The notes under the pieces: model-generated
Databases searched by the model: none
Seen by the model: the letters and a program-made list of their open reading frames with translations, nothing else
What the model was told of the DNA's origin: nothing
Shown: piece by piece, positions 1 through 51,603 of the stretch
Layout: the number at the start of each line of letters is the position of its first letter
Position numbering within the stretch: position 1 is the stretch's first letter
Assembly (NCBI GenBank): GCA_910585195.1
Contig: CAJUCX010000003.1
Location: 1,828 to 65,827, forward strand
Length of the DNA: 64,000 bases
Direction: 5' to 3'
DNA from: an uncultured Christensenellaceae bacterium
GTDB taxonomy: Bacteria; Bacillota; Clostridia; Christensenellales; CAG-314
Translations under genes and position numbers: made by a program

Positions 1-1251
1 TGCTTAACAGCGAACTGTCAGACAGCGCGGGCGAAATGCCAAAAACAGTTTATTGCCGTCCTTTGAAATTTACCGACAAGGAGATTTCAAAAATGCCAAA
101 GACTTTTAGAAAAGAGTTTAGAATAGACGGCTGCACAGCACACGTAAGAAAACGCAGCGACGCGCGCTACCGTTGCTCTTATGAGATAAGATACCGCCGG
201 AACGGTTACAACATCACCGCATCGGCGCGAACGCTTGAAGCAGCGAAAGAGAATTTTATTCAAAAATTGCGTAATGCTGACAACAAGAAAGAAAACCCTA
301 CCACCAACAAAGTGCCGACGACTTTTAACGAGTTTGCTTATTTTTGGTTTGAGAACTACCACAAACGCAAAGTTATAATCGACACATACAAAAATAGTTT
401 GGGCGTATTTAAAAGACACATTGCACAGCGGTTTGTAAACGAGCCTATAAAAAACATAAACGCAAAAGACATACAAGACATTTTGGACGAATACACGGCG
501 CAAGGCAAATACAAAACCGTCGAAGATATTTTCGGCTTATTCAATCAGATACTAACTTACGCTGTAAAATATGGGCTTATCGTACATAACCCTGCCGAAA
601 TCGTTTTTTACAAAAGACATGAGAGAAAGCACGGCAAAGCACTTTCGTTGGACGAAGAAAAAAAGTTGCTTGCAGAAAGTGCCGGCACACATTACCAACT
701 TATGTTTGCCGTCGCACTCTATACCGGACTGCGACCTAATGAATTTAAAACCGTTGAAATACGCGGCAACATGATAATTGCAAAAAACAGCAAGCGGCGC
801 AACGGTGAGATTGCATACAAGCGAATACCGATACTAAAAATGTTAAAGCCGTACTTAGACGGCGTCGACAAAATTAAATGGGTTAAGCTTGACCGAATAC
901 GCAACAAGTTTAGAGAAATTCTGCCAAATCACAAATTATATGACTTGCGGACGACGTTTTACACGCATTGTCAAATTTGCGGAATTGCAGAAAGCGCACG
1001 CGACGAAATGGTAGGACACTCCGGCGGAATACTTAAAGACACCTACACCGATTTGCCGGACGAATTTTTACTTAAAGAAGCGGAAAAAATGGTGTGGTAA
1101 AAAATTACCCCCAAATATACCCCCGCAAAATTTTAAAAAATAACTAAAAATGGAGTTTTTGGGCTTAAATATTTGAAAAAACAACTTAATATAATACAGT
1201 TTTAGGCAAAAAATGGCGTTTTTTAATATTCGAGCCCTATACTCCCCACCA
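1..1251 (+). mobile_element. Right end of a putative integrative element (integrase plus att-like site); the element would extend leftward out of the window
   Basis: An integrase gene at 36-1100 is followed about 130 bp later by a sequence laid out like a tRNA 3' end, present in two copies. The left boundary is not in the window. Confidence 0.45.
36..1100 (+). CDS. Tyrosine recombinase / phage-type integrase
   Basis: 354-aa ORF. The C-terminal part (GLRPNEF, HKLYDLRTTF, MVGHSGG..KDTYTD) fits the R..H-x-x-R..Y catalytic pattern. The N-terminus is basic and arm-binding-like. Confidence 0.85.
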   Translation: MPKTVYCRPLKFTDKEISKMPKTFRKEFRIDGCTAHVRKRSDARYRCSYEIRYRRNGYNITASARTLEAAKENFIQKLRNADNKKENPTTNKVPTTFNEFAYFWFENYHKRKVIIDTYKNSLGVFKRHIAQRFVNEPIKNINAKDIQDILDEYTAQGKYKTVEDIFGLFNQILTYAVKYGLIVHNPAEIVFYKRHERKHGKALSLDEEKKLLAESAGTHYQLMFAVALYTGLRPNEFKTVEIRGNMIIAKNSKRRNGEIAYKRIPILKMLKPYLDGVDKIKWVKLDRIRNKFREILPNHKLYDLRTTFYTHCQICGIAESARDEMVGHSGGILKDTYTDLPDEFLLKEAEKMVW

Positions 1252-4812: not shown

Positions 4813-5427
4813 TTAAATATTGATTACCTTTTGAGCGCCGCTCATGGCTTCTACAATGTCGTACATATTGCAGATTTCCCCTACGGAAACTTGGTCTTTA
4901 ACTTTGAAGTAGTCTGCGCAAGTGCCGCAAATGCGTATTTTGGTGCCGCGTTCTTCCATAACTTTAATATCTGCCAGAGTGTTGGCGTCTTTTAACGTAA
5001 GTTTAACGCCGCTGTTGAAAAATACGACTGCCTTTGGCGGAACTTCCAACTGCGAAAGAGAAAAGATAAAACCTTTTATAAGTATCTTGCCGAGTTCTTC
5101 GCTGCCGTGCCCCATTTGGTTTTGACTTATGGCAACAACCAAACCGTTGCCCGACGGCGCCGAAACCGTTGTTTGTTGGCTAACTTCAACTTCCTGCGCC
5201 TGACCTGCGCCAACCGTGATAGTAACCGCATAGTCCTTGTCGGCGCGTTTTACTACGTCGCACTTGTAACCTTTGCTTGCCGACATTTTGCTTAAATTGT
5301 CGCAGGCAATTTGGTTGTCTACAAGCACTTGCACTGCGCCGCCTTCCTGCGGAAACTTTGCAATTACTTTTTTTGCTTCGATAACTGGTCTGGGACAAAC
5401 CCAACCCATTGCGTCGATAATTTCCAT
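4813..5427 (-). CDS. yedF: YedF-type selenium metabolism protein (TusA/SirA-like N-terminus plus DsrE-like C-terminus)
   Basis: 204 aa. N-terminal CPRP motif (GWVCPRPVIEAKK) as in TusA/SirA. An AGAGG ribosome-binding site precedes the ATG. Confidence 0.8.
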   Translation of the reverse strand: MEIIDAMGWVCPRPVIEAKKVIAKFPQEGGAVQVLVDNQIACDNLSKMSASKGYKCDVVKRADKDYAVTITVGAGQAQEVEVSQQTTVSAPSGNGLVVAISQNQMGHGSEELGKILIKGFIFSLSQLEVPPKAVVFFNSGVKLTLKDANTLADIKVMEERGTKIRICGTCADYFKVKDQVSVGEICNMYDIVEAMSGAQKVINI

Positions 5428-5429
5428 AA

Positions 5430-6593
5430 CTATTTACCTCTTTTTAATAAAATTCGTTTTATACCGCGGACGGCCGTGTCGACTTCTTCCTGCTTGTTGA
5501 AGTGGGAAAAGGAAAATCTGACCGCTCCCGTCCGTTGCGTACCCAAAGTTTTGTGCATAAGCGGCGCACAATGCGCTCCTGCCCTTACTGCAATACCGTA
5601 TTCCTGCCAAAGCATATCCGCCGCGTCGCCGCTGTCAATTCCGTCAAGATTAAGCGCAACGACAGGCGTCCTTACCGAGGCGCCGACGTCGCCGTAAAGA
5701 GTAACGCCGTCAATACATTCGACTTGTTTTATAAAATTTCTTGCTAATATATCGGCGTCGTCAAACAGACTAGAACTATTGTTTTGCTTGTTTGCTTTGC
5801 CTGTAAATATTTTTTCGTTAAACTTCTCTACGTAAGTTATGCCAGCAAGCAAACCCGCTATGCCGTGTGCGTTTTGCGTGCCTGCCTCCAAAGCATCGGG
5901 CATTAAATCGGGGTGCGTGGGAGAAAACGATTCGCTGCCGCTGCCGCCTATAACGAGCGGCTGCGGTTTGAAGTCTTGTCCCAAGCAAATACCTCCCGTG
6001 CCCTGCGGTCCGTAAAGCGATTTATGCCCGGAAAAGCACAGCGCCGATATATTTGCTTTTTGCATATCTATTGCAAGCAAGCCGGCAGTCTGCGCACAGT
6101 CTGCAATAAACCTTACGCCCTCTTTTTTGCAGATTTCGCCTATGGCATAAATATCGTAAACGTTGCCGACAAGGTTTGACGCGTGGCAAGTAACCACCGC
6201 TTCGGTTTCGCTTGTGATGGCGTCTTGCAACTTATTTAAGTCCAGTCTGCCTAGTTTGTCGTTTTGCACCACGGTAAAATTGCCGTGTCTATACACAGGG
6301 CGCAATACGCTGTTGTGCTCTGCGCAGGTGGTAACAATGTTTCCTTTAACGGAAGATATGGCAATATTAAGCGCGGCGGTTGCATTTTGAGTAAACGCCA
6401 CGTCCATTGCGTTTTTGACGTTAAACAACTTTGCAACGGCAAAACGCGCTTTCATAAGCGTACGCAAACCGTTAAGCGACGCGTCATAAGACCCGCGCGA
6501 CGGGTTTCCGCAAGTGTTAAGAGCGTTTGCGATTTCTTCCGCCACCTGCGGCGGCTTTGGCATTGTCGTTGCGGCGTTGTCAAAATATATCAT
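5430..6593 (-). CDS. Class V aminotransferase: cysteine desulfurase / selenocysteine lyase family
   Basis: 387 aa. FSGHKSLYGPQGTG is the PLP-lysine region, and HCAPL near the C-terminus holds the catalytic Cys region. It ends 2 nt before the yedF start. Confidence 0.85.
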   Translation of the reverse strand: MIYFDNAATTMPKPPQVAEEIANALNTCGNPSRGSYDASLNGLRTLMKARFAVAKLFNVKNAMDVAFTQNATAALNIAISSVKGNIVTTCAEHNSVLRPVYRHGNFTVVQNDKLGRLDLNKLQDAITSETEAVVTCHASNLVGNVYDIYAIGEICKKEGVRFIADCAQTAGLLAIDMQKANISALCFSGHKSLYGPQGTGGICLGQDFKPQPLVIGGSGSESFSPTHPDLMPDALEAGTQNAHGIAGLLAGITYVEKFNEKIFTGKANKQNNSSSLFDDADILARNFIKQVECIDGVTLYGDVGASVRTPVVALNLDGIDSGDAADMLWQEYGIAVRAGAHCAPLMHKTLGTQRTGAVRFSFSHFNKQEEVDTAVRGIKRILLKRGK

Positions 6594-6693
6594 AACAATA
6601 TTTTAACCCTGCAAAGAAACAATGTCAATAAAGAAATGTATTGAAATTAAATTGCAAGTGTGATAAAATTCAAATATAAACGGAGAAATTATT

Positions 6694-8073
6694 ATGAATA
6701 AATTGCGTTCTATGCCGCGCGTAGACGACGTGCTGTCGTTGGTGCAGGCAGAGCAAAAAACACAAAACATCTCTTATGCGGAACTGTTAAACTGCGTGCG
6801 CGAAACTTTGGACAAAACACGCAAAGACGTATTGTCTGGCAAACTCGAACAAGTGCCGCCTATTAAAGAAATCGTACGCGAAGTCGTAAGAATGGCGGTA
6901 AAACAATGCAGCGGCAGTTTGCGCCCCGTCATAAATGCCACCGGCGTAGTTTTGCACACAAACTTGGGCAGAGCCGTGCTTGCGGAAGCCGCGGCGGAAA
7001 ACGTAAAGCAAGTAGCAAGGCAATACAACACTTTGGAGTATGATTTGGAAGCAGGAGAGCGCGGCAGCAGACACAGCCACGTTGAAAAGCTTATTTGCAA
7101 ACTTACCGGTGCAGAGGCGGCAATGGCGGTAAACAACAACGCCGCAGCCGTAATGCTTATGCTTGCGAGCATATGTAAAGATAAGGAAGTAGTAGTTTCG
7201 CGCGGAGAACTCGTTGAAATCGGCGGTTCCTTCCGCGTGCCGGAAATTATGAGTATGAGCGGCGCAACGCTTAAAGAAATAGGCACCACCAACAAGACGC
7301 ACGCCGACGATTATCGCAAAGCGATAAACGAAAACACGGCGGCATTATTGAAAGTACACACAAGCAACTTTAAGATTGTAGGGTTTTCGCAATCAATCGG
7401 CATAGAAGAACTTTCTCAAATAGGCAAAGAAACAGGCGTGCCCGTGCTTTACGACGTAGGCAGCGGTCTTATGGTTGACAACGCTCTCGTAAACATCGCC
7501 GACGAACTTTGCGTAAAAGAATGCATAAAAGGCGGCGCCGACGTGGTATGTTTCAGCGCCGACAAGCTTTTGGGCGGTCCGCAGGCAGGTATCCTTGCAG
7601 GCAAAAAAGAATATATCGACAAAATGAAAAAAAATCAATTTGCAAGAGTCGTTCGTATCGACAAGTTGAATCTTGCCGCGTTGGAGTCCACTTTGCGCAT
7701 TTATCTTGACGAGGAACGCGCCTTTAAGGAAATACCTACCCTTGCAAACCTTGCGGTAAGTAAATCCGACTTGCGCATAAAGGCAACCAAACTGCAAAGT
7801 ATGCTGCCCGAGCGCAAAAAAGACTTTACTTCCGTCATCAAAGCAGCAGAGTCGCAAGTAGGCGGCGGCTCCGCACCTGGAGAACTTTTGCCGTCTTTCG
7901 CAGTGCAGATAACGCCCGTTTCCATATCCGCCGCGGAAATGGAAAAGCGCCTGAGAGAATATGAAACTCCTATCATCTGCCGCATAAGGCAGGATAAGGT
8001 TTTGCTTGACCCGCGCACCATCTTTGAAAATCAATTTGAAGAAATTGCAAAGGCGTTTAACGAAATATTTTAA
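6694..8073 (+). CDS. selA: L-seryl-tRNA(Sec) selenium transferase
   Basis: 459 aa. FSADKLLGGPQAG is the PLP-lysine motif characteristic of SelA. N-terminal MPRVDDVL-type start. Confidence 0.93.
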   Translation: MNKLRSMPRVDDVLSLVQAEQKTQNISYAELLNCVRETLDKTRKDVLSGKLEQVPPIKEIVREVVRMAVKQCSGSLRPVINATGVVLHTNLGRAVLAEAAAENVKQVARQYNTLEYDLEAGERGSRHSHVEKLICKLTGAEAAMAVNNNAAAVMLMLASICKDKEVVVSRGELVEIGGSFRVPEIMSMSGATLKEIGTTNKTHADDYRKAINENTAALLKVHTSNFKIVGFSQSIGIEELSQIGKETGVPVLYDVGSGLMVDNALVNIADELCVKECIKGGADVVCFSADKLLGGPQAGILAGKKEYIDKMKKNQFARVVRIDKLNLAALESTLRIYLDEERAFKEIPTLANLAVSKSDLRIKATKLQSMLPERKKDFTSVIKAAESQVGGGSAPGELLPSFAVQITPVSISAAEMEKRLREYETPIICRIRQDKVLLDPRTIFENQFEEIAKAFNEIF

Positions 8074-8100
8074 CAGCAACTAAAATAAGTAATAAAAAAA

Positions 8101-8132
8101 CAGGCTGCCGCCTTGAAAAATACGGCAGCCTG
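8101..8132. terminator. 10-bp-stem hairpin after selA
   Basis: CAGGCTGCCG-12 nt-CGGCAGCCTG. The uridine-rich tail is on the minus-strand side (A7 precedes the hairpin on plus), so the hairpin is canonical only for minus-strand transcription. Confidence 0.5.
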
Positions 8133-8174
8133 TGCTAAAATAATTTAGGTCGGGGAAGTTCGCCCCGTTTATAT

Positions 8175-8264
8175 GGGACCGGATAGGTGCTGGTGTGCCT
8201 TTCGGGCAACCGATATGGGAAGTTTTACTGCCTGGGTGAGTTCGATTCTCACACGGTCCCGCCA
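8175..8264 (+). tRNA. tRNA-like gene at the expected selC position; Sec-type scaffold, anticodon not resolved
   Basis: GGGACCG(G) pairs with (A)CGGTCCC, followed by G-CCA. The T-arm is GTGAG-TTCGATT-CTCAC. The D-arm AGGTGC-TGGT-GTGCCT has a 6-bp stem and 4-nt loop. The central 35 nt contain no TCA and no 7-nt anticodon loop that I can fold. Confidence 0.5.
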
Positions 8265-8309
8265 TTTTCAAAAATGATAGGAGTTGATAATTTTATTGCT
8301 CCCGACATA

Positions 8310-8338
8310 GAACCGATAAGTAAAAAATCGGTTCTTTT
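8310..8338 (+). terminator. Terminator downstream of the tRNA-like gene
   Basis: GAACCGAT-9 nt-ATCGGTTC followed by TTTT. Confidence 0.65.
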
Positions 8339-8394
8339 ATATAATATGCATTAAAAAGCAAAAGTGCTCTGCAATGCTTTTTTAAGGAGGACGT

Positions 8395-9423
8395 ATGGAC
8401 GCAAACAAAATTATGAAATTGCCTGCTTGCGGCGGTTGTATGGCAAAATTGCCACCGGGTATGCTTAAAGACGTGGTGTCGCAAATACCGACTTTTAACG
8501 ACAAAAATCTGCTTGTGGGTTTTGACACTTCCGACGACGGCGCGGTATATAAATTAAGCGACGACATTGCAATAATACAGACGCTGGACTTTTTTACCCC
8601 TATGGTCGACGACCCTTATGTTTTCGGTAAAATTGCAGCTACAAACGCTTTGAGCGACATTTACGCTATGGGCGGAGAAGTAAAAGTTGCATTAAACATC
8701 GTATGCTTTCCTGAAGAAGACGACCCTGCAATGTTGGCGTCCATTTTGAAAGGCGGCGCTGAAAAGGTTTTGGAAGCGGGCGGCGTGCTTTGCGGCGGAC
8801 ACTCCATAAACGACAAAGAATGCAAATACGGTCTGTCGGTAACCGGCACCGTGCACCCGAACAAATATCTGCGCAACAACACCTGCAAAAAAGGCGATTT
8901 AATCGTGCTTACCAAGCCTTTGGGCGTAGGTATGATAATGGCGTCTTACCGCTACGGCGAAGTTGCGGAAGACGACTATCAAACGGCGCTTAAAAGTATG
9001 CAGACATTAAATAAATACGCCTTTGAGGCGGCAAGCAAATTTGATTTGCACGCAGGCACAGACGTAACGGGCTTCGGCTTTTTGGGGCACTTAAACGAAA
9101 TGGTAGACGACGGCTACTCTATTGCAGTAAACGGCAACGACGTAAAATACATAAAAGGCGCAATGCATTTGGCGGAAGAATTTTTAACCACCGGCGGCGG
9201 ACAAAAAAACCGCAACTTTTTGGGCGACAAAGTAAAGTTCAACAACGTACCTCGCCCTGTGCAGGAAATTTTGCTTGACCCGCAAACCAGCGGCGGTTTG
9301 CTGTTGAGCTTGCCTCCTAAGGACGCCAAAGAACTTATGAAAGTGCTTGCCGACTTTGAAATGCCGTCGTGCATAATAGGCGAAGTAACCGACAGAAAAG
9401 AAAGCAATATTATTGTTTATTGA
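8395..9423 (+). CDS. selD: Selenide, water dikinase (Cys-type)
   Basis: 342 aa. N-terminal KLPACGGCMAKLPPG, then GGHSI and DVTGFG, fitting the AIR-synthase-like SelD layout. AAGGAGG precedes the ATG. Confidence 0.93.
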   Translation: MDANKIMKLPACGGCMAKLPPGMLKDVVSQIPTFNDKNLLVGFDTSDDGAVYKLSDDIAIIQTLDFFTPMVDDPYVFGKIAATNALSDIYAMGGEVKVALNIVCFPEEDDPAMLASILKGGAEKVLEAGGVLCGGHSINDKECKYGLSVTGTVHPNKYLRNNTCKKGDLIVLTKPLGVGMIMASYRYGEVAEDDYQTALKSMQTLNKYAFEAASKFDLHAGTDVTGFGFLGHLNEMVDDGYSIAVNGNDVKYIKGAMHLAEEFLTTGGGQKNRNFLGDKVKFNNVPRPVQEILLDPQTSGGLLLSLPPKDAKELMKVLADFEMPSCIIGEVTDRKESNIIVY

Positions 9424-36669: not shown

Positions 36670-37185
36670 TTATGCAATGGAGCCTGCTATACTCTCGCTG
36701 ATAACTTTTGCCATAGAATTTACCGTTTGCTGCCTTGCCGTGTATAGCATTGAGAGCCCAAAGGCAGTTATTTTTTCATTTACAACACCCACGATAGATA
36801 TATCCCCCACGCATGGCAAATTTTTATTTGTGGCAGAACCAGGGTATAAGCCGTGAGAATAAATTTGTATCGTGCCAACTTCCGCCGTATGCCCCAATGC
36901 AGCATCGACAACCAATAGCATTCTGTCATAGTGTAATTCTCTTATCATATCCTTGACCAATAAAAGATTTTTTGCATTTATATTGTTGTCTACCATTCCG
37001 TACACTATTACGTCTTTATCTAATTGCTCTATAAGTTTTGTCCCAATCATCGGCCCGAGGCTGTCCCCTGCCACTCTATCGCAGCCGATACATAATACAA
37101 CAAGTTTTTGTTTACCAATCAACAAAGAGAGTTTGTCTTTAAGTTTTTGCACACAGTTGCTATCATAAACGTCAACGGAAAACAT
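36670..37185 (-). CDS. yyaC: Spore protease YyaC (GPR-like)
   Basis: 171 aa. VVLCIGCDRVAGDSLGPMIG motif. GGAGG ribosome-binding site. Confidence 0.85.
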   Translation of the reverse strand: MFSVDVYDSNCVQKLKDKLSLLIGKQKLVVLCIGCDRVAGDSLGPMIGTKLIEQLDKDVIVYGMVDNNINAKNLLLVKDMIRELHYDRMLLVVDAALGHTAEVGTIQIYSHGLYPGSATNKNLPCVGDISIVGVVNEKITAFGLSMLYTARQQTVNSMAKVISESIAGSIA

Positions 37186-37349
37186 ATCATTTACCTCCGC
37201 ATAGATTATTTCCCACTATTTGACTTTTATACCAAACCTTTCCCGTCAGATAAAAATATAATAATTTTAATTATGATTGTCCCATCATAACTATGAAATG
37301 TAGTTAGATATATGAGATATTGAAATATTACGTCATCAAAAAATCTCGG

Positions 37350-37403: not shown

Positions 37404-37467
37404 GCGATTTCTTTTTACTTAAACTAAATTGCGTTAAAATTTGCTTAAAATTGCAGATTTGAAAAAT

Positions 37468-37539
37468 GCCCGTAGAATGCGACGAGACAGAATGACACTT
37501 TTTTTGGTCGAACCAAAAATACCCCCATTCTGTCTCGTC
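37468..37539. repeat. Left 72-bp inverted-repeat unit (13-nt arm plus imperfect long palindrome)
   Basis: GCCCGTAGAATGC plus GACGAGACAGAATG..TTTTTGG-TCGAA-CCAAAAATACCCCCATTCTGTCTCGTC. It is 66/72 identical to the reverse complement of 37853-37924. Confidence 0.85.
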
Positions 37540-37621
37540 AAAGCCTATTTTTGGGGAAAATTTTCCGTTTCTTGCAAAGTCAATCATTTAGGGTTATATA
37601 ATATTTAACACAACAAATAAT

Positions 37622-37637
37622 TGTTTCACGTGAAACA
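37622..37637. promoter_or_regulatory. parS site 1 (ParB/Spo0J binding site)
   Basis: TGTTTCACGTGAAACA, a perfect 16-bp palindrome matching the Firmicute parS consensus TGTTNCACGTGAAACA. Confidence 0.85.
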
Positions 37638-37659
37638 ATTAAAGAAAACGATATATTTG

Positions 37660-37675
37660 TGTTTCACGTGAAACA
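37660..37675. promoter_or_regulatory. parS site 2
   Basis: A second TGTTTCACGTGAAACA, 38 bp from site 1 measured start to start. Confidence 0.85.
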
Positions 37676-37852
37676 TTGTGTATATATACTTTTTGACAAT
37701 AAAATAATAGCGAGTAAGCATGGAAAATAATATCAACCTGTCATTATCCTTAAATTTATCTTTAATATACTGGGGATAGCATTAAGCACTTAATTTGATT
37801 GCGTGGCAGTTTTGACTGTTGTAATAGGGAAATATAGGAATTATTTCGATAA

Positions 37853-37924
37853 GACGAGACAGAATGGGGGTATTTTTGGCTCGACCAAAAATACCCCCAT
37901 TCTGTCTCGTCGCATTCTACGGGC
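37853..37924. repeat. Right 72-bp inverted-repeat unit (perfect 27-bp-arm palindrome plus 13-nt arm)
   Basis: GACGAGACAGAATGGGGGTATTTTTGG-CTCGA-CCAAAAATACCCCCATTCTGTCTCGTC followed by GCATTCTACGGGC. Confidence 0.9.
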
Positions 37925-37985
37925 ATATTAAATTTGGGCAAAATAAAGGGGCTTTTATTGAAAGCCCCGTGTGAAATTACTTTAA

Positions 37986-38783
37986 TTAAAATATTTGCGA
38001 CATCAGCCAGTTTGCTATCCAGTTGTTTTCAAACAGAAACTTTGTAACTACCGACTGGTCGATTTGTGCGCGCAACCCTGACAAAAAGCCTTCGATAGGA
38101 ATGTACGCAACGGCGGTAAGAATAATCGATATTATCAAATACGCTTCCGCAACACCGAGCAAAAATCCTAACACGCGGTTAATTCCGCCGAATAACTTAA
38201 AGGACGTAAGTCTTATCAACACTCTGCGCAGAATAAATATAACTATTGACAAAACGATTATCAAGAATACAAAGGCAACAACGGTCATTGCAAGAGATGC
38301 TATTGCATTAGGCAAAACTTCCGCAAGAACAGCCTCCCCAAAACTTTCAAACATTCCGTTGAAAATGCCGGTTGCCATAAGCAGGCTTGCAAACGTTGAC
38401 GGTATGCCGATTCTCTCCAACACAATCTGAATAAGTCCGTGATTGTCGGGGTTTGCCCAATCGATAGAGGTGGTGAAAATTTGAATAGCCTGACCGTCGT
38501 CAAGCCCTGCAATAGAGTTGGCGATAGGGTCGCTTACTATATGTCCAAACGGACCTACCAGTAGGGAACCGACAGGCCTTGCAAGCAACACAGCTCCGAC
38601 AATTACAATCAACGTGCCGAACAAACTGAAAAATAATTTTGTAAAGCCTTTTGCCATACCTATTACACCTAAAATCAATATAAAGGCAATTACGACGAGG
38701 TCTATCGTAGCAAGACCTGAGCCTTCGGCAAAAAACATTCCGTTAAAATACGTCATCGATACTCCTAAAAAATGAACACTCAT
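37986..38783 (-). CDS. cvpA: CvpA family membrane protein
   Basis: 265 aa, 4-5 TM helices, with the N-terminal DLVVIAFILILGVIGMAKGF pattern of CvpA. Its ATG overlaps the parB stop (ATGA). Confidence 0.8.
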   Translation of the reverse strand: MSVHFLGVSMTYFNGMFFAEGSGLATIDLVVIAFILILGVIGMAKGFTKLFFSLFGTLIVIVGAVLLARPVGSLLVGPFGHIVSDPIANSIAGLDDGQAIQIFTTSIDWANPDNHGLIQIVLERIGIPSTFASLLMATGIFNGMFESFGEAVLAEVLPNAIASLAMTVVAFVFLIIVLSIVIFILRRVLIRLTSFKLFGGINRVLGFLLGVAEAYLIISIILTAVAYIPIEGFLSGLRAQIDQSVVTKFLFENNWIANWLMSQIF

Positions 38784-39703
38784 TCATTTTTATTATCGTT
38801 ATTGTTAAATCTCAAATCCTCAATCATAGCGCAAATTCTGTCAAGGTCATCTTTTGTGTAATAGTCTATATAAAGTCTTCCCTTGTTGTCATTTCCTATG
38901 GCGGTAACTTTAGTTGCAAAAACACGCTGCATATTAGAAACTAGTTCTTTAAGTTCTATACTTTGTTCTACGCGAGGTTTAACAGGCTTAGGGTTGAGAT
39001 ATTCTCTTACCATTTTTTCCGTATCGCGCACAGACATATTGCAAGCGCGTTGGGCAAGTTTTACCTGCGCGTCCAAATCCGTAACTACGACAAGCGTTCT
39101 TGCGTGTCCTGCCGAAAGTCTGTTTTTTTCTACCAAATCGAGCACTTGCTCGTCAAGGGTAAGAAGACGCAAAGTGTTGGCTATTGCGGAACGGCTTTTA
39201 CCCAGTCTGTCGGCAACGGATTCCTGCGTCATATTGCATTCTTCCATCAGCTGCTTTATTGCGCGGGCAGTTTCTACCGGGTTGAGGTCTTCACGCTGCA
39301 AGTTTTCTATCAAAGAAACTTCTTTTATCTGTTGCGGCGTATATTTTTTGACGATTGCCGGCACAGCTTTAAGCCCTGCGATTTTTGCGGCGCGCCATCT
39401 GCGTTCGCCGGCAATTATCATATAACGCGAGCCCATTTTAACCAAAACTATCGGTTGAATTATTCCATGTGTTTTAATGCTGTCGGCAAGTTCTTTTAAC
39501 GACTGTTGGTCAAAGTTTTTACGCGGCTGCTCATAGTTAGGGTCGATTTCTCCGATTTCGATTTCGCTAACTTCACCGGTGGCTATTTGCTTTTTAAGCT
39601 CTTTTTTTCTTTCGTCAATTAAAATGCTTTGCTTTTTGTCGGTTTTATTTTCTCCTAAAAGCGAATCAAACGATTTTCCCAATCCTTTTTTTGCTGCTGC
39701 CAT
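38780..39703 (-). CDS. parB: Chromosome partitioning protein ParB/Spo0J
   Basis: 307 aa. IIQPIVL, GERRWRAAK box and an HTH region. Confidence 0.93.
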   Translation of the reverse strand: MAAAKKGLGKSFDSLLGENKTDKKQSILIDERKKELKKQIATGEVSEIEIGEIDPNYEQPRKNFDQQSLKELADSIKTHGIIQPIVLVKMGSRYMIIAGERRWRAAKIAGLKAVPAIVKKYTPQQIKEVSLIENLQREDLNPVETARAIKQLMEECNMTQESVADRLGKSRSAIANTLRLLTLDEQVLDLVEKNRLSAGHARTLVVVTDLDAQVKLAQRACNMSVRDTEKMVREYLNPKPVKPRVEQSIELKELVSNMQRVFATKVTAIGNDNKGRLYIDYYTKDDLDRICAMIEDLRFNNNDNKNE

Positions 39704-39704
39704 A

Positions 39705-40469
39705 TTAACCCAATCTCCTTAAAAGTTCTTCCGCAACTTTTTCGTATGCGATGCCTCCGCGTGACTTCGGTGCGTGCTGCGAAATCGGCACGCCGAAACT
39801 AGGGCTTTCGCAAAGTTTGACGTTTCGCGGAATTTGCTCGTCAAACACCTTGTCGCCGAAATATTTTTTGATTTCTTCGGTAACTTGTTTTGACAGAGTA
39901 GGACGGCTATCGTACATCGTCAAAATTACGCCGTATATACTTATTTTAGGGTTTACGCGCTCTTTAACGAGTTTAATGGTGTTCATTAACTGACTTAAAC
40001 CTTCCAAGGCAAAAAACTCGCTTTGCAGCGGAACGATAACTCCGTCGCAAGCACCCAAAGCGTTCAAAGTAAGTATGCCCAAAGACGGCGGACAGTCAAT
40101 CATTACGTAGTCGTAACGAGAAACTTTGCCGCGAAGCGCTTTTGCAAGAACGCGCGTTCTGTTCGGAACGTCTGCAAGTTCTATCTCCAAATTGGCCAAG
40201 TCTATATTGCACGGCAGGATATCGAGACCGGGATAGCCGGTTGTCAATGCAACATCCTTAAACTCTGCATTGCCGAGCATAAGGTCATAAAGAGTATAGT
40301 CAAGTTCGTTCTTTTCAAAACCGTAACCGCTCGTCAGATTGCCCTGGGGGTCTATGTCTACCATCAGCACTTTTTTGCCTGCGCGTGCTACGTAATCTGC
40401 AACGTTCAAAACAGTTGTAGTCTTACCAACACCGCCTTTCTGATTTGAAAACGCTATAATTTTACCCAT
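39705..40469 (-). CDS. parA: Chromosome partitioning ATPase ParA/Soj
   Basis: 254 aa. Deviant Walker A, NQKGGVGKTT. Confidence 0.93.
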   Translation of the reverse strand: MGKIIAFSNQKGGVGKTTTVLNVADYVARAGKKVLMVDIDPQGNLTSGYGFEKNELDYTLYDLMLGNAEFKDVALTTGYPGLDILPCNIDLANLEIELADVPNRTRVLAKALRGKVSRYDYVMIDCPPSLGILTLNALGACDGVIVPLQSEFFALEGLSQLMNTIKLVKERVNPKISIYGVILTMYDSRPTLSKQVTEEIKKYFGDKVFDEQIPRNVKLCESPSFGVPISQHAPKSRGGIAYEKVAEELLRRLG

Positions 40470-47571: not shown

Positions 47572-48675
47572 TTACACTATGCGTACCGGAAGTATGAGAT
47601 ACAAATATTCTTCTTTGTCGCAAGGGGTTATTACGCAAGGGTTTACCGGCGTGTTTAGGTTTATCTTTATAAACTCGTCGTCAACCGCCTTCATACAATC
47701 CAACAAATAACGGGAGTTAAAGGCAATGGTCATATCTTTGCCTACCAAATTTATTGCGATGCTTTCCTTCAAATTTGCGCCGTCGTCGCTGTTGGAAATT
47801 AAATTTACTACGTTTTCTTTAATATCGAGTTTTACGAGGTTGTTTTTTTCCAAACGGGAAAGTATGCTTGCTCTGTCGAGACTGTTTTTGAATTGGTCTT
47901 TATTTATAATTACGTTGGTATCGAAATCGGTAGGTATGATTTGCTTATAGTTTATGAAATCACCCGAAAGCAAGCGGGTCATTATCATAGTATGTTCCAA
48001 ATCTACCATAAGGAAGTTGTTTTCTACTTTAACATGTATTATATCGTCGCTGTCGTCCAAAAACTTGTTAAGTTCGTTAAGACTGCGCGCAGGTACTATT
48101 ACGCTCATCTTTTCCGCTTTTTGTTCCAAAGGTTTGTTTACCATAGCAAGACGGTAACCGTCAAGAGCAACCGCACTTATTTTGTAATCTTCCGCCTCAA
48201 ACAAACAACCTTTAAGCGTAGGCCTGCCTTCGTCCACAGAAACGGAAAATATGGTTTTTGTTATTAAATCTTTAAGTTCTTTGGAAAGTATAACAAAACC
48301 TTTTGCCGATTCTATCCTTTCGAGTTCCGGATATTCTTCCACAGGGAAGCATTTCTTTTCTACTTCGCCGTCGGTGTATTTTATTTTAAGTTTCTGACTG
48401 TCGTCCAAAGAAAGTTCTATTTGCTCGTTGGTAAGCATTTTTACAAGCTCGCCGAAAAATTTGCCCGGCACGACGGTTTCGCCTTCGACCAAAACTTCCG
48501 CATTTATTTTCTTTTCTATCGCAAGTTCCAAATCTGTGGCAAACAACGTAAGACAATCGTCTTTTGCCGTAAGTTTAATACCTTCCAAAATAGGAGAAAC
48601 GTTTTTGCTGTTTAAGGCTTTTGTTACTTTAATTACGGCGTCGCTGAGTTCTACGCCCTGACAGATAAGTTTCAT
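47572..48675 (-). CDS. dnaN: DNA polymerase III beta sliding clamp
   Basis: 367 aa, three-domain clamp. MKLICQ...L...V.K....K...PIL.GI.L start and a LILPVRI-type C-terminus. AAGGAG ribosome-binding site. Confidence 0.95.
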   Translation of the reverse strand: MKLICQGVELSDAVIKVTKALNSKNVSPILEGIKLTAKDDCLTLFATDLELAIEKKINAEVLVEGETVVPGKFFGELVKMLTNEQIELSLDDSQKLKIKYTDGEVEKKCFPVEEYPELERIESAKGFVILSKELKDLITKTIFSVSVDEGRPTLKGCLFEAEDYKISAVALDGYRLAMVNKPLEQKAEKMSVIVPARSLNELNKFLDDSDDIIHVKVENNFLMVDLEHTMIMTRLLSGDFINYKQIIPTDFDTNVIINKDQFKNSLDRASILSRLEKNNLVKLDIKENVVNLISNSDDGANLKESIAINLVGKDMTIAFNSRYLLDCMKAVDDEFIKINLNTPVNPCVITPCDKEEYLYLILPVRIV

Positions 48676-49043: not shown

Positions 49044-50378
49044 ATGGACGTCAGAGAATTGTGGCAAAAAATGCTGGACGAACTTGAAACGACACTTCCG
49101 GCTTTGGGTTTCGACACATTGGTTGAAACAACCGTGCCTGTAAGTATAACAGACGGCAAACTTATACTTTGCACAAACAGCGAAGTAAGCAAAAGTCTTG
49201 TTCAAAAAAGGTTTGCACAACAAATAAGACTGGCTATGCAAATGGTGCTGCCTATGCTTGACGACGTAGAATTTATTACGGAAGCGCAAAAAGATTTATA
49301 TATAAATAAAGAAGAAGTTTTAAGACCGGTCTGCCACAATTTTGAAGAAACGGTATTTATAAAGAAATATACGTTCGACAATTTCGTAGTAGGCAAATCC
49401 AACGAGTTTGTAGCCGCTGCTGCAAGGGCCGTATCGGAAGCACCCGGCAAAAAATTCAATCCGTTGTTTATATACGGCGGAGTGGGACTCGGCAAAACGC
49501 ACTTACTGCACGCAATAGGCAATCATTTAATGAAAAGCAAGCCTAAATTCAAGACGCTGTACGTAAGTTGCGAAAAATTTACCAACGAACTTATAGAAGC
49601 CATAAGAGACACCAACGAAGCAAAAAAAGCGTTTAGAGAAAAGTACCGCAGTTGCGACGTGCTTATGATTGACGACATTCAGTTTGTATCCAAAACCGAC
49701 GCCACCCAGGAAGAATTGTTTCATACTTTCAACGACCTTTACAGCGCGGAAAAGCAAATTATCATAAGCAGCGACCGCCCACCGAAAGAAATTCAGCATT
49801 TGGAGGACAGATTGCGCACGCGTTTTGCGTGGGGTATGATTGCCGACATAAAACCGCCTGATTTAGAAACGAGAATTGCCATTTTGCAAAAAAAGGCAAG
49901 CGAGCAAAACGCAAACGTAAGCAACGACATATTAAAGGTTATTGCAAACAACGTGCAGACCAACATAAGAGATATGGAAGGTTTGCTTACTAGGGTTATA
50001 AGTTACGCATCGCTTATAAACCACTCGGTAATAGATATGGACGTTGTTAAAGAAGCGTTAAAAGACTACACCGACGATCAAAAGGAAATGATTTCCGTAG
50101 ACAATATTATAGACGCCGTTACGGAGTATTTCAGCATAGATAAAGAGGCGTTGGTAGGCAAAAAGAAAAATAAAGAAATTGTAGAACCGCGTCAGATATG
50201 TATATATCTCATCACAGAGTTTTTGACTTTGCCGTTGGTTAAAATAGGAGAAGTCTTCGGCGGAAGAGATCATACAACCATATTGCACGCGCGCAATAAA
50301 ATAGAAGAGCAGTGTAAAACGGACGGCAGAATTTCCGTATACGTAAAAGATTTGAAGGATATGCTCCTTAAAAAATAA
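49044..50378 (+). CDS. dnaA: Chromosomal replication initiator DnaA
   Basis: 444 aa. GGVGLGKTHLLHAIG Walker A and a C-terminal DNA-binding domain (GGRDHTTILHARNKI). Confidence 0.97.
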   Translation: MDVRELWQKMLDELETTLPALGFDTLVETTVPVSITDGKLILCTNSEVSKSLVQKRFAQQIRLAMQMVLPMLDDVEFITEAQKDLYINKEEVLRPVCHNFEETVFIKKYTFDNFVVGKSNEFVAAAARAVSEAPGKKFNPLFIYGGVGLGKTHLLHAIGNHLMKSKPKFKTLYVSCEKFTNELIEAIRDTNEAKKAFREKYRSCDVLMIDDIQFVSKTDATQEELFHTFNDLYSAEKQIIISSDRPPKEIQHLEDRLRTRFAWGMIADIKPPDLETRIAILQKKASEQNANVSNDILKVIANNVQTNIRDMEGLLTRVISYASLINHSVIDMDVVKEALKDYTDDQKEMISVDNIIDAVTEYFSIDKEALVGKKKNKEIVEPRQICIYLITEFLTLPLVKIGEVFGGRDHTTILHARNKIEEQCKTDGRISVYVKDLKDMLLKK

Positions 50379-50505
50379 TTTTTTCGCGTTTTTTCCGCCC
50401 GTTGTCTGTATTTATGTTTTATAAAAAATAATATATTTTTCGTTGTTAAAACCGCGCTTTGTTTTCCCGTCGACAGACTAAAACCGCGTTAAAAAAATTA
50501 ATAAA

Positions 50506-51603
50506 ATGTTTGTAAGAAGTATTACGGTAAAAAATTACAGAAATTTGGATTACCAAAAAGTAGAGTTGCAAAAGGGGTTAAACGTCTTTTGCGGACTCAA
50601 CGCGCAAGGAAAAACAAATTTTTTGGAGTGTATCGTATTGAGTTCTCTCGGCAAATCTCCGCGTACCGACAGAGACAAAGAACTTATAAACTGGGACAAA
50701 GACTGGGCGCAGATAAAGACTGTTTTTTGCACCGAAACAACCGACGGAGAAATAGAAATAAAACTAAGCAAGGCAGAAAAAAAACGCGTCGCGGTAAACG
50801 GGTTGCCGTTAATAAAAATAGGCGAGTTGTTGGGGTGGTTAAACGTAATTTATTTTTCGCCCGAAGAAATAAAAGTCATAAGAGAAGGTCCCGACGCAAG
50901 ACGCCGTTTTATGGATATAGACCTCTGCCAGACGGACAAAAATTATTTTTATACGCTAAACAGATACAACAAAATTTTGACGCAGCGCAACAATTTGCTC
51001 AAAAAAGAATTTCAAAACAAAGACCTTAAAGAAATGCTTTCCATTTGGGACAAGCAGCTTGCCAAAGAAGGCGCAAAACTTTTTATAAAGCGCAAGGACT
51101 TTATACAAAAAATTGCACCGATAGCGCAGGAAGTGCATAAAAAACTGACCGATGGCAAAGAAGAAATGCACTTGATATATCAGACGGAAATGCAAGGGGA
51201 AACTGCGGCTCAGGCGGAAGAATTTTTGACGGACAAACTGTCTCAGACTTTCGACAAACAGTTGAAGTTGGGGTTTACCGCCAACGGCGTGCACAGAGAC
51301 GACGTCAAGTTTTCCGTCAACAACGTAGATATACGCAAATACGGTTCGCAAGGACAGCAGCGCACGGCGGCGCTTACGCTAAAAATAAGCGAAGTAAAAT
51401 TGCTTAAAGAAATCATCGGCGAGTACCCCGTATTGTTGCTTGACGACGTTTTCAGCGAAATCGACGCATTGCGCCGCAGACGGCTGTTGGAGTACACAGC
51501 GGACATTCAAACGGTGCTTACCGCAACGGAGTTTGAGACAGAACTTGCAAACGGCATACCTTACAAAAAATTTACCGTATCGAACGGCAAAATAAGCGGA
51601 TAA
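50506..51603 (+). CDS. recF: DNA replication and repair protein RecF
   Basis: 365 aa. GLNAQGKTNFLE Walker A, GSQGQQRT signature and LLLDDV Walker B. Confidence 0.93.
   Translation: MFVRSITVKNYRNLDYQKVELQKGLNVFCGLNAQGKTNFLECIVLSSLGKSPRTDRDKELINWDKDWAQIKTVFCTETTDGEIEIKLSKAEKKRVAVNGLPLIKIGELLGWLNVIYFSPEEIKVIREGPDARRRFMDIDLCQTDKNYFYTLNRYNKILTQRNNLLKKEFQNKDLKEMLSIWDKQLAKEGAKLFIKRKDFIQKIAPIAQEVHKKLTDGKEEMHLIYQTEMQGETAAQAEEFLTDKLSQTFDKQLKLGFTANGVHRDDVKFSVNNVDIRKYGSQGQQRTAALTLKISEVKLLKEIIGEYPVLLLDDVFSEIDALRRRRLLEYTADIQTVLTATEFETELANGIPYKKFTVSNGKISG

Follow-up and report, generated by a model that had tools for sequence, protein, structure and literature searches.

The window analyzed here is a stretch of 64,000 nucleotides from an uncultured Christensenellaceae bacterium (assembly GCA_910585195.1, contig CAJUCX010000003.1), and the element under study is a cassette at positions 37468–37924 in which two predicted ParB loading sites (parS) are bracketed by 72-nt units in inverted orientation. 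The cassette lies in an 800-bp spacer within a series of genes that are all on the minus strand, in the order mnmG, rsmG, parA, parB, a CvpA-domain gene (cvpA), the spacer, the DUF1256/YyaC gene (yyaC) and ftsH. We found that TGTTTCACGTGAAACA occurs in exactly two copies in the 64-kb window, at 37622–37637 and 37660–37675, with a start-to-start distance of 38 bp. When up to two mismatches were allowed, there were no matches beyond these two (chance expectation, 0.05), and three mismatches added one more, a poor match at 6412. Both copies fit the 16-bp Firmicute palindrome (consensus TGTTNCACGTGAAACA) and have no strand; the first, a perfect palindrome, is kept in every allele and in every related lineage at the same spacer, and the spacing of the pair is 37–40 bp in other alleles and in the sister lineage. 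The exact-pattern and mismatch scans agree with the original prediction, made on the window itself, that two perfect parS sites 38 bp apart lie downstream of parA-parB-cvpA and are the sole ones in the window. The replication origin (oriC) was placed near 48.7–49.0 kb by the GC-skew minimum, DnaA-box-like sites and dnaA, with the cassette about 11 kb off; no DnaA boxes were found in the cvpA-yyaC spacer. For this uncultured spore-forming Firmicute, the two 16-mers are the predicted main sites of ParB loading near the origin, and parS itself is of the textbook kind. As in the chromosomal parS clusters of Firmicutes, such as that of Bacillus subtilis Spo0J/ParB, the same 16-bp palindrome is present in multiple copies, close to the origin and beside parA-parB; unlike in those clusters, the sites here are gathered in a single spacer, with a conserved quasi-palindrome on either side. 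Our literature searches found no published description of parS bracketed in this way.

The yyaC-side unit (37468–37539, minus strand) consists of the 13-mer GCCCGTAGAATGC (37468–37480) and a 59-nt quasi-palindrome (37481–37539) that is 82% self-complementary. The cvpA-side unit (37853–37924, plus strand) consists of a perfect palindrome (37853–37911; 27-nt arms and a 5-nt loop) and the 13-mer GCATTCTACGGGC (37912–37924), so that the 13-mers are outermost. Between the units, the core (37540–37852, no strand) is 313 bp long and AT-rich; the parS pair alone is conserved in it, and its halves are dimorphic among conspecific strains. In alignment, the units are reverse complements at 66 of 72 positions, with the six differing positions all within one arm and the loop. 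This architecture, with a perfect right and an imperfect left palindrome around the 313-bp core, had been described correctly. The inverted repeat extends, more weakly, to 105 nt (37435–37539 versus 37853–37957; 81%), the folding z-score was −14.6, and the motif AGAATG occurs three times in each unit. In the earlier statement that the palindromes have no U-tail and are not ordinary terminators, the lack of a tail applies to the large stem, which has no adjacent T tract, but not entirely to the units: on the gene strand, ATTTTTC comes 14 nt after the yyaC-side unit, and there the scan flagged a small terminator-like hairpin of five pairs, made with the 13-mer and followed by CATTTTT. Rfam searches at gathering and permissive thresholds gave tRNA and tRNA-Sec only for the window and noise only for the hairpins (best match 24.6 bits versus a gathering score of 80). 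Small open reading frames (ORFs) through the units were also considered. A frame of 22–40 aa (M...FCLVAFYGH) is kept across units, which follows from the conserved DNA, and it was rejected as a gene: it was never called by the gene caller and has no convincing ribosome-binding site, and all six frames are open.

Relatives were gathered via CvpA and YyaC homologues, their contigs and two metagenome pattern scans, and the same spacer was compared in about 20 conspecific assemblies and eight other lineages. The exact CvpA protein of the window was not on record in a protein-database look-up. A neighbour-joining tree of six concatenated flanking proteins had the form ((window, L001), L009), (L036, L039), (L016, (L035, L042)), with bootstrap values of 99–100%; here L001 is a conspecific assembly and L009 represents the sister lineage. 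In all nine sampled lineages, this one included, the cvpA-yyaC spacer contained 2–4 parS or near-parS sites (clusters were seen in L016, L031, L032–L035, L036/L038, L039, L042, L009 and L043). Because every lineage has these sites there, the 2–4-site cluster is ancestral to the whole clade and ordinary. The units have a narrower distribution. This species has two in inverted orientation, and the sister lineage (L009, L043 and L045; protein distance 0.10) has two as direct repeats, with both 13-mers on the yyaC side. The L032–L035 lineage (distance 0.31) has three parS sites and one unit-like hairpin on the yyaC side (AGACAGAATG..ATTTTTGGTCG..ATTCTGTCTCATCGC), which occupies the syntenic position and is probably a homologue of the units. 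Four lineages (L016, L036/L038, L039 and L042) have the parS cluster in the same spacer and no unit, and the partial L031 contig has no unit on the cvpA side. Given direct repeats in the sister lineage, a single unit in L032–L035 and none in the others, the symmetric inverted arrangement is specific to this species. The synteny comparison thus extended the parS cluster to all lineages and confined the units to this species, its sister and, probably, L032–L035. The idea that the repeats package parS does not survive it, since relatives carry parS in the same spacer without the repeats, the very finding that had been named as refuting the idea. L042 is the sister of the L035 lineage in the tree, yet has no unit; a search for an empty site or footprint by comparing the two was limited to the first 145 nt, as the rest of their spacers is too diverged to align. 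In L016, a second terminator-like hairpin (AGGCTGTTTT..AAAACAGCCT, then AATTTTT) was observed at 5290–5330, between the cvpA terminator and the first parS site.

Comparison of the units themselves showed a pattern different from that of the DNA around them. Across the eight units compared, which come from two lineages, neither the 24-mer CATTCTGTCTCGTCGCATTCTACG nor the 14-nt arm varies, except for one base in one unit. Each unit is built of two invariant 14-bp arms (GACGAGACAGAATG), inverted and exactly 31 bp apart, followed by the invariant GCATTCTACG, and the interior is 31 nt long in all eight. Between this species and the sister lineage, nucleotide identity was 57–58% in the core, 53% in the outer spacer and 77–84% in the genes; within the species, the units are 92–100% identical and the core halves 65–68%. 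With arms and a 24-mer that hardly vary inside a spacer that has diverged by about 40%, the 72-nt units are under purifying selection.

At least four alleles of the cassette were found among the conspecific assemblies. The window allele, with its perfect cvpA-side palindrome, is also present in seven further assemblies. Four others (L001, L046, L047 and L048) have a quasi-palindrome on both sides, with the arm ACACTTTTTTTG where the window has GGGGTATTTTTGG, and 5–7 central mismatches in the palindrome characterize the other alleles and lineages. The yyaC-side unit is near-identical in all 14 conspecific assemblies reaching it, that of L048 being slightly different. The six changes that distinguish the window form one block, which makes the arm an exact complement of its partner. 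By this comparison, the perfect palindrome is allele-specific and derived. A block of this kind is what templated conversion through quasipalindrome template switching leaves behind, but conversion copied from the other unit, or recombinational import, would yield the same result. Quasipalindrome template-switch mutagenesis is an established mechanism with known hotspots (PMC7202029). The six-change block resembles their products in that it turns one arm into an exact complement; the mechanism differs from what is sought here in that it would explain the origin of the perfect palindrome and not the purpose of the unit.

The core varies in a different manner. Its halves, 37540–37621 and 37676–37852, are each dimorphic, with 65–68% identity between alleles versus 97–100% for the flanking genes and the outer spacer, and the alleles are mosaics whose breakpoints coincide with the parS pair: the window is A+A, L001 is B+A and L046 is B+B. 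As a by-product, the inverted repeats may make the core recombinogenic, which would give rise to the mosaic dimorphic alleles and to one inverted assembly. A candidate promoter of the sigma-70 type (TTGCAA..TATATA), in the conserved right half of the core, was discarded, as it is not conserved in alleles L046 and L048. Logan contigs ending 89 nt after cvpA were likewise set aside as a sign of heterogeneity, since they are fully explained by unitigs (k=31) breaking on entry into the inverted repeat.

The inverted assembly is L003 (positions 5477–5817; metagenome-assembled genome GCA_948949305.1, contig CARBXT010000032.1), whose core is the exact reverse complement of the L001 core over 282 of 282 nt. 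The interior of its unit is swapped along with the core, which is exactly what a crossover within the repeat's outer 41 nt would produce. These two features would fit an inverton, in which the 72-nt inverted repeats serve as recombination sites and flip a core promoter between yyaC-ftsH and antisense par. However, about 14 other assemblies have the forward orientation, so that only one of the approximately 15 assemblies reading into the core is inverted; L003 is a short contig that ends inside the core, and a low-coverage misjoin over the exact 41-nt repeat present in L001-type alleles would look alike. Whether L003 represents a real inversion stands at about even odds. Like invertons, the locus has a segment of about 300 bp between inverted repeats and one assembly in the opposite orientation; unlike them, it has no recombinase nearby (none within 10 kb, and the sole integrase-like ORF is 36 kb off), no conserved promoter in the core, which is itself dimorphic between strains, and repeats much longer than usual. 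Besides, parS is symmetric, and the direct repeats of the sister lineage would delete the segment and not invert it. An inverton in this sense is therefore quite improbable, and a dedicated inversion switch is unlikely.

Searches for further copies of the unit were negative. Exact, mismatch and gapped pattern searches gave no further copy of the unit or the palindrome arm in the 64-kb window, and neither blastn-short nor a covariance model built from the eight units gave an extra copy in about 145–152 kb of the window and related loci. The gapped stem pattern, run on one genome for each of 185,579 GTDB species, gave four matches only (in Segatella, Leptolyngbya and Nesterenkonia), which are unrelated hairpins with nothing but an 11-nt stem in common. 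A 22-mer from the unit had no match in metagenome contigs, where the arm pattern was found at the syntenic locus only, once per sample in three samples. Viral contigs, plasmids and phages yielded nothing for the units. The unit is thus not a common dispersed REP-like element, a check that had been proposed, and the possibility that copies elsewhere also bracket parS found no example in the collections searched. The flanks of the cassette (...TTTGAAAA|ATGCCCG and CGGGCAT|ATTAAATT) contain no direct repeat of 3 bp or more that could represent a target-site duplication; no transposase or recombinase was found within 10 kb of the cassette; and Y1_Tnp (RAYT) had no match among the scanned ORFs of the window or in the L001 gene table. 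An empty site, with the whole element and its cargo missing, was not seen among the relatives, and those without units keep parS at the same place. On these grounds, the units appear to be a separate cis element that is confined to this one locus and is not mobile.

This bears on the earlier suggestion of a miniature inverted-repeat transposable element (MITE) or another terminal-inverted-repeat element. A MITE-like or REP-like mobile element that captured parS would account for terminal inverted repeats of 72–105 nt. REP elements have a 5' GTAG tetranucleotide, and the GTAG inside the 13-mer recalls it, which is a lead only. The locus shares with REP, BIME and REPIN elements an imperfect palindrome, a conserved flanking GTAG and pairing in inverted orientation; those elements are dispersed in tens to hundreds of copies and are associated with a RAYT gene, whereas the units occur at a single locus and the window has no Y1 transposase. 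With MITEs (Correia, RUP and BOX) it shares a short non-coding segment between terminal inverted repeats, but here there are no other copies and no target duplication, the orientation of the units varies by lineage (direct in the sister) and the parS cargo predates the repeats. The suggestion is largely refuted, and we give it almost no credence. The integrase-like ORF mentioned above (36–1100, plus strand) resembles phage-type tyrosine integrases in their N-terminal and central domains alone (Phage_int_SAM_3 and Phage_int_M) and is the only one of its kind in the window. In the plasmid and phage collections, the parS stretch alone had matches, in a few Lactobacillus phages: 37615–37677 matches the Lactobacillus phages Lpa804, Bromius and LpeD (H3–H8) at about 91% identity over 33–45 nt. 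The matches lie in unannotated intergenic DNA of these large phages of Lactobacillus plantarum and pentosus, which suggests that the phages carry parS-like sites.

A consensus scan offered a possible role for the units. A promoter-like site, TTGCCC-16-TAGAAT, lies at 37914–37941 on the minus strand, with its −10 element within the 13-mer, and reads inward, in the gene direction, through the palindrome and parS; its mirror image, TTGCAG-16-TAGAAT, lies at 37451–37478 on the plus strand and reads inward across parS, antisense to the genes. TAGAAT is invariant in the 13-mer, and a −35-like hexamer is found 16–18 nt upstream of it in every unit. The match of this hexamer to the consensus differs among units, being 3/6 on the yyaC side of the window (TTGCAG), 4/6 on its cvpA side (TTGCCC), 4/6 or 5/6 in unit 2 of the sister lineage (TTTATA or TTTACA, at 18-nt spacing to TAGAAT) and 6/6 in unit 1 of that lineage, whose TTGACA-16-TAGAAT scored 11/12 in the scan. 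For comparison, random positions reach 6/6 in 0.2%, at least 5/6 in about 2% and at least 4/6 in about 14% of cases. The TTGACA of unit 1 is kept in L009 and L043 despite three substitutions in the spacer. On the strand opposite to this reading, CTCGTCGCATTCTACGGG followed by CATTTTT was called terminator-like by the scan in both the window and L009.

Tentatively, we suggest that each unit may combine a promoter-like module, whose −10 element is the TAGAAT of the 13-mer, with a 5' hairpin or an operator downstream of it; we hold this as a possibility still more doubtful than not. A transcript would start at the base of the palindrome and have a 5'-terminal hairpin, or else the arms would form an operator overlapping +1, and on the other strand the same unit would resemble a weak hairpin terminator, with the small 13-mer hairpin and CATTTTT. 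Such a module would explain the invariant −10 element and first transcribed arm, the co-conservation of the second arm for pairing and the free interior. The two modules of this species would be directed at each other, with convergent transcription of the parS pair inside a cassette of about 450 bp whose start and stop points are the units; the modules of the sister lineage would both point towards cvpA-parB. The modules would then be likely to govern transcription that runs through the ParB nucleation site in antisense to the par operon, and less likely to form a physical cruciform fence. The whole explanation, which combines an ancestral parS cluster, selected single-locus units and their reading as promoter-like modules, seems to us evenly balanced between right and wrong.

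Several observations weigh against this explanation. The promoter reading was found post hoc and leaves the fixed 31-bp spacing of the arms unexplained, the −35 elements of this species are weak (3/6 and 4/6), and in this AT-rich DNA the scan finds 18 promoter-like sites versus 9.5 expected. RNA folding energies show no consistent strand preference. No covariation for a hairpin was found among the units: of 27 possible pairs, 15 never vary and 9 depart via unpaired cells only, one shows a double change, and shuffles score as well or better. The lower stem is invariant, and the middle seven pairs are unpaired in most units. What is conserved is sequence and not structure, and the "long palindrome" therefore amounts to a pair of invariant inverted arms with a short T:A stem and a free interior. 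The single locus holds for the window, the related loci and the collections searched, and a few extra copies may exist in the remainder of the source genome. Homology of the L032–L035 hairpin is only moderately supported, its similarity being modest before synteny is allowed for (E=0.04 by blastn-short against 152 kb, and 14 bits with E=0.35 by the covariance model), and the patchy distribution needs several losses or two gains.

Other functions were considered for the units. They may bind a sequence-specific protein through two inverted 14-bp sites at a fixed 31-bp spacing, with a third, partial AGAATG repeat in the 13-mer, and would then be accessory centromere or operator sites beside parS that need neither transcription of the unit nor hairpin extrusion. 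The arms and 24-mer are invariant and the interior is free in sequence while fixed at 31 nt in the eight units, AGAATG is present three times per unit, and folding has no strand asymmetry, all of which speak for such sites. However, the 45 bp from centre to centre do not make up whole helical turns, neither a candidate protein nor an adjacent regulator gene was found, and no recognised motif was seen (DnaA boxes are absent from the spacer; 0A, CIRCE, CtsR and CodY boxes were compared by eye only). Protein binding is a possibility that we consider rather doubtful. A function at the RNA level only, as terminators, insulators or stability hairpins that shield the parS cluster and yyaC from par-operon read-through, is in our judgment unlikely. 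It would agree with the polarity palindrome, 13-mer, T-run shared in the gene direction by four of the five unit types, with the terminator-like CTCGTCGCATTCTACGGG and CATTTTT in the window and L009, and with the second hairpin before the parS cluster of the unit-less L016. On the other hand, 14 nt separate the large stem from the T-run, the small hairpin consists of 5 pairs only, the cvpA-side unit of this species is oppositely oriented, the cvpA operon is already served by a good terminator that precedes the unit, and covariation is absent; 100% identity amid 40% divergence would also be abnormal for terminators.

Cruciform extrusion, by which the palindromes would physically bound the parS pair or help ParB clamps or SMC to load there, would be suggested by the long palindromes immediately flanking the only parS sites on both sides, by the 27 perfect pairs and very favourable fold of the right unit and by the occurrence of units beside parS clusters only. 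The comparative data do not support the boundary reading: the perfect palindrome belongs to one allele while others have 5–7 central mismatches, the symmetric pair is species-specific, and single, direct or no units coexist with the same parS cluster. ParB also normally must spread over kilobases and can bypass roadblocks (PMC9242446). We regard this reading as very improbable. In another, which also seems unlikely, the units are accessory centromere elements that set up convergent or antisense transcription directly where ParB nucleates, or hairpin extrusion dependent on supercoiling, and in this way tune ParB/SMC loading or par-operon expression. If true, it would represent a regulated chromosomal centromere in a spore-forming Firmicute, and the tendency of the inverted repeats to recombine would also account for a core that is hypervariable and occasionally inverted.

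Returning to the promoter-like module, plasmid centromeres can overlap promoters (parC of R1), and 5'-terminal stem-loops stabilise mRNAs in Bacillus. The units would resemble these systems in having transcription signals within a centromere region and transcripts that start with a stable hairpin. For type Ia chromosomal ParABS, we know of no promoters aimed across parS. What is new at this locus is a sequence-invariant, single-locus pair of hairpin modules that tightly brackets the main ParB loading site. Conservation of the modules spans lineages that retain little more than random similarity in the spacer around them; the modules are arranged as inverted, direct or single copies, and enclose core segments about 35% different between strains otherwise about 99% identical. 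Should they be promoters or operators, the locus would be a naturally occurring instance of regulated transcription through a chromosomal centromere; protein-binding sites would instead point to an unknown centromere-associated factor. The window allele is also a clean natural example of a quasi-palindrome "perfected" in one allele. These considerations concern an uncultured organism and a small clade.

The neighbouring genes have the domains expected from their names. ParA (soj, 39705–40469, minus strand) matches Pfam AAA_31, CbiA and ParA; ParB (spo0J, 38780–39703, minus strand) matches ParB_N, HTH_ParB and ParB_C; and the CvpA-domain membrane protein, encoded by the last gene of the par operon (37986–38783, minus strand), matches Colicin_V (1.1e-16). 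The intrinsic terminator of the parA-parB-cvpA operon was located by terminator scan at 37948–37968 on the minus strand (GGGGCTTT..AAAGCCCC, then TTTATTTT), which places it upstream of the cvpA-side unit, and an equivalent hairpin was found after cvpA in all relatives. The first gene downstream of the spacer, yyaC (36670–37185, minus strand; DUF1256, 7.8e-40), belongs to the spore protease YyaC family, and one homologue is named "spore protease YyaC" in the database. Just upstream of it, at 37186–37260 on the minus strand, we observed a forespore-type promoter-like sequence (GTATA, ~14 nt, GGAAATAAT) that resembles, by eye, the sigma-F consensus; if real, it would give yyaC its own sporulation promoter, independent of the units.

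Two further features of the window are farther from the cassette. The usual gene order at the origin is dnaA-dnaN-recF. Here, in the segments 47572–48675 (minus strand) and 49044–51603 (plus strand), dnaN lies across the presumed oriC from dnaA and is divergently transcribed from it, giving the order rnpA <- dnaN | oriC | dnaA -> recF -> gyrB -> gyrA, which is the same in L001. A selenium-utilisation cluster was found at 5430–9423, and it includes a class-V aminotransferase gene, selA (6694–8073), tRNA-Sec (8175–8260) and a gene for a SelD-like protein of the AIR-synthase family (8395–9423).

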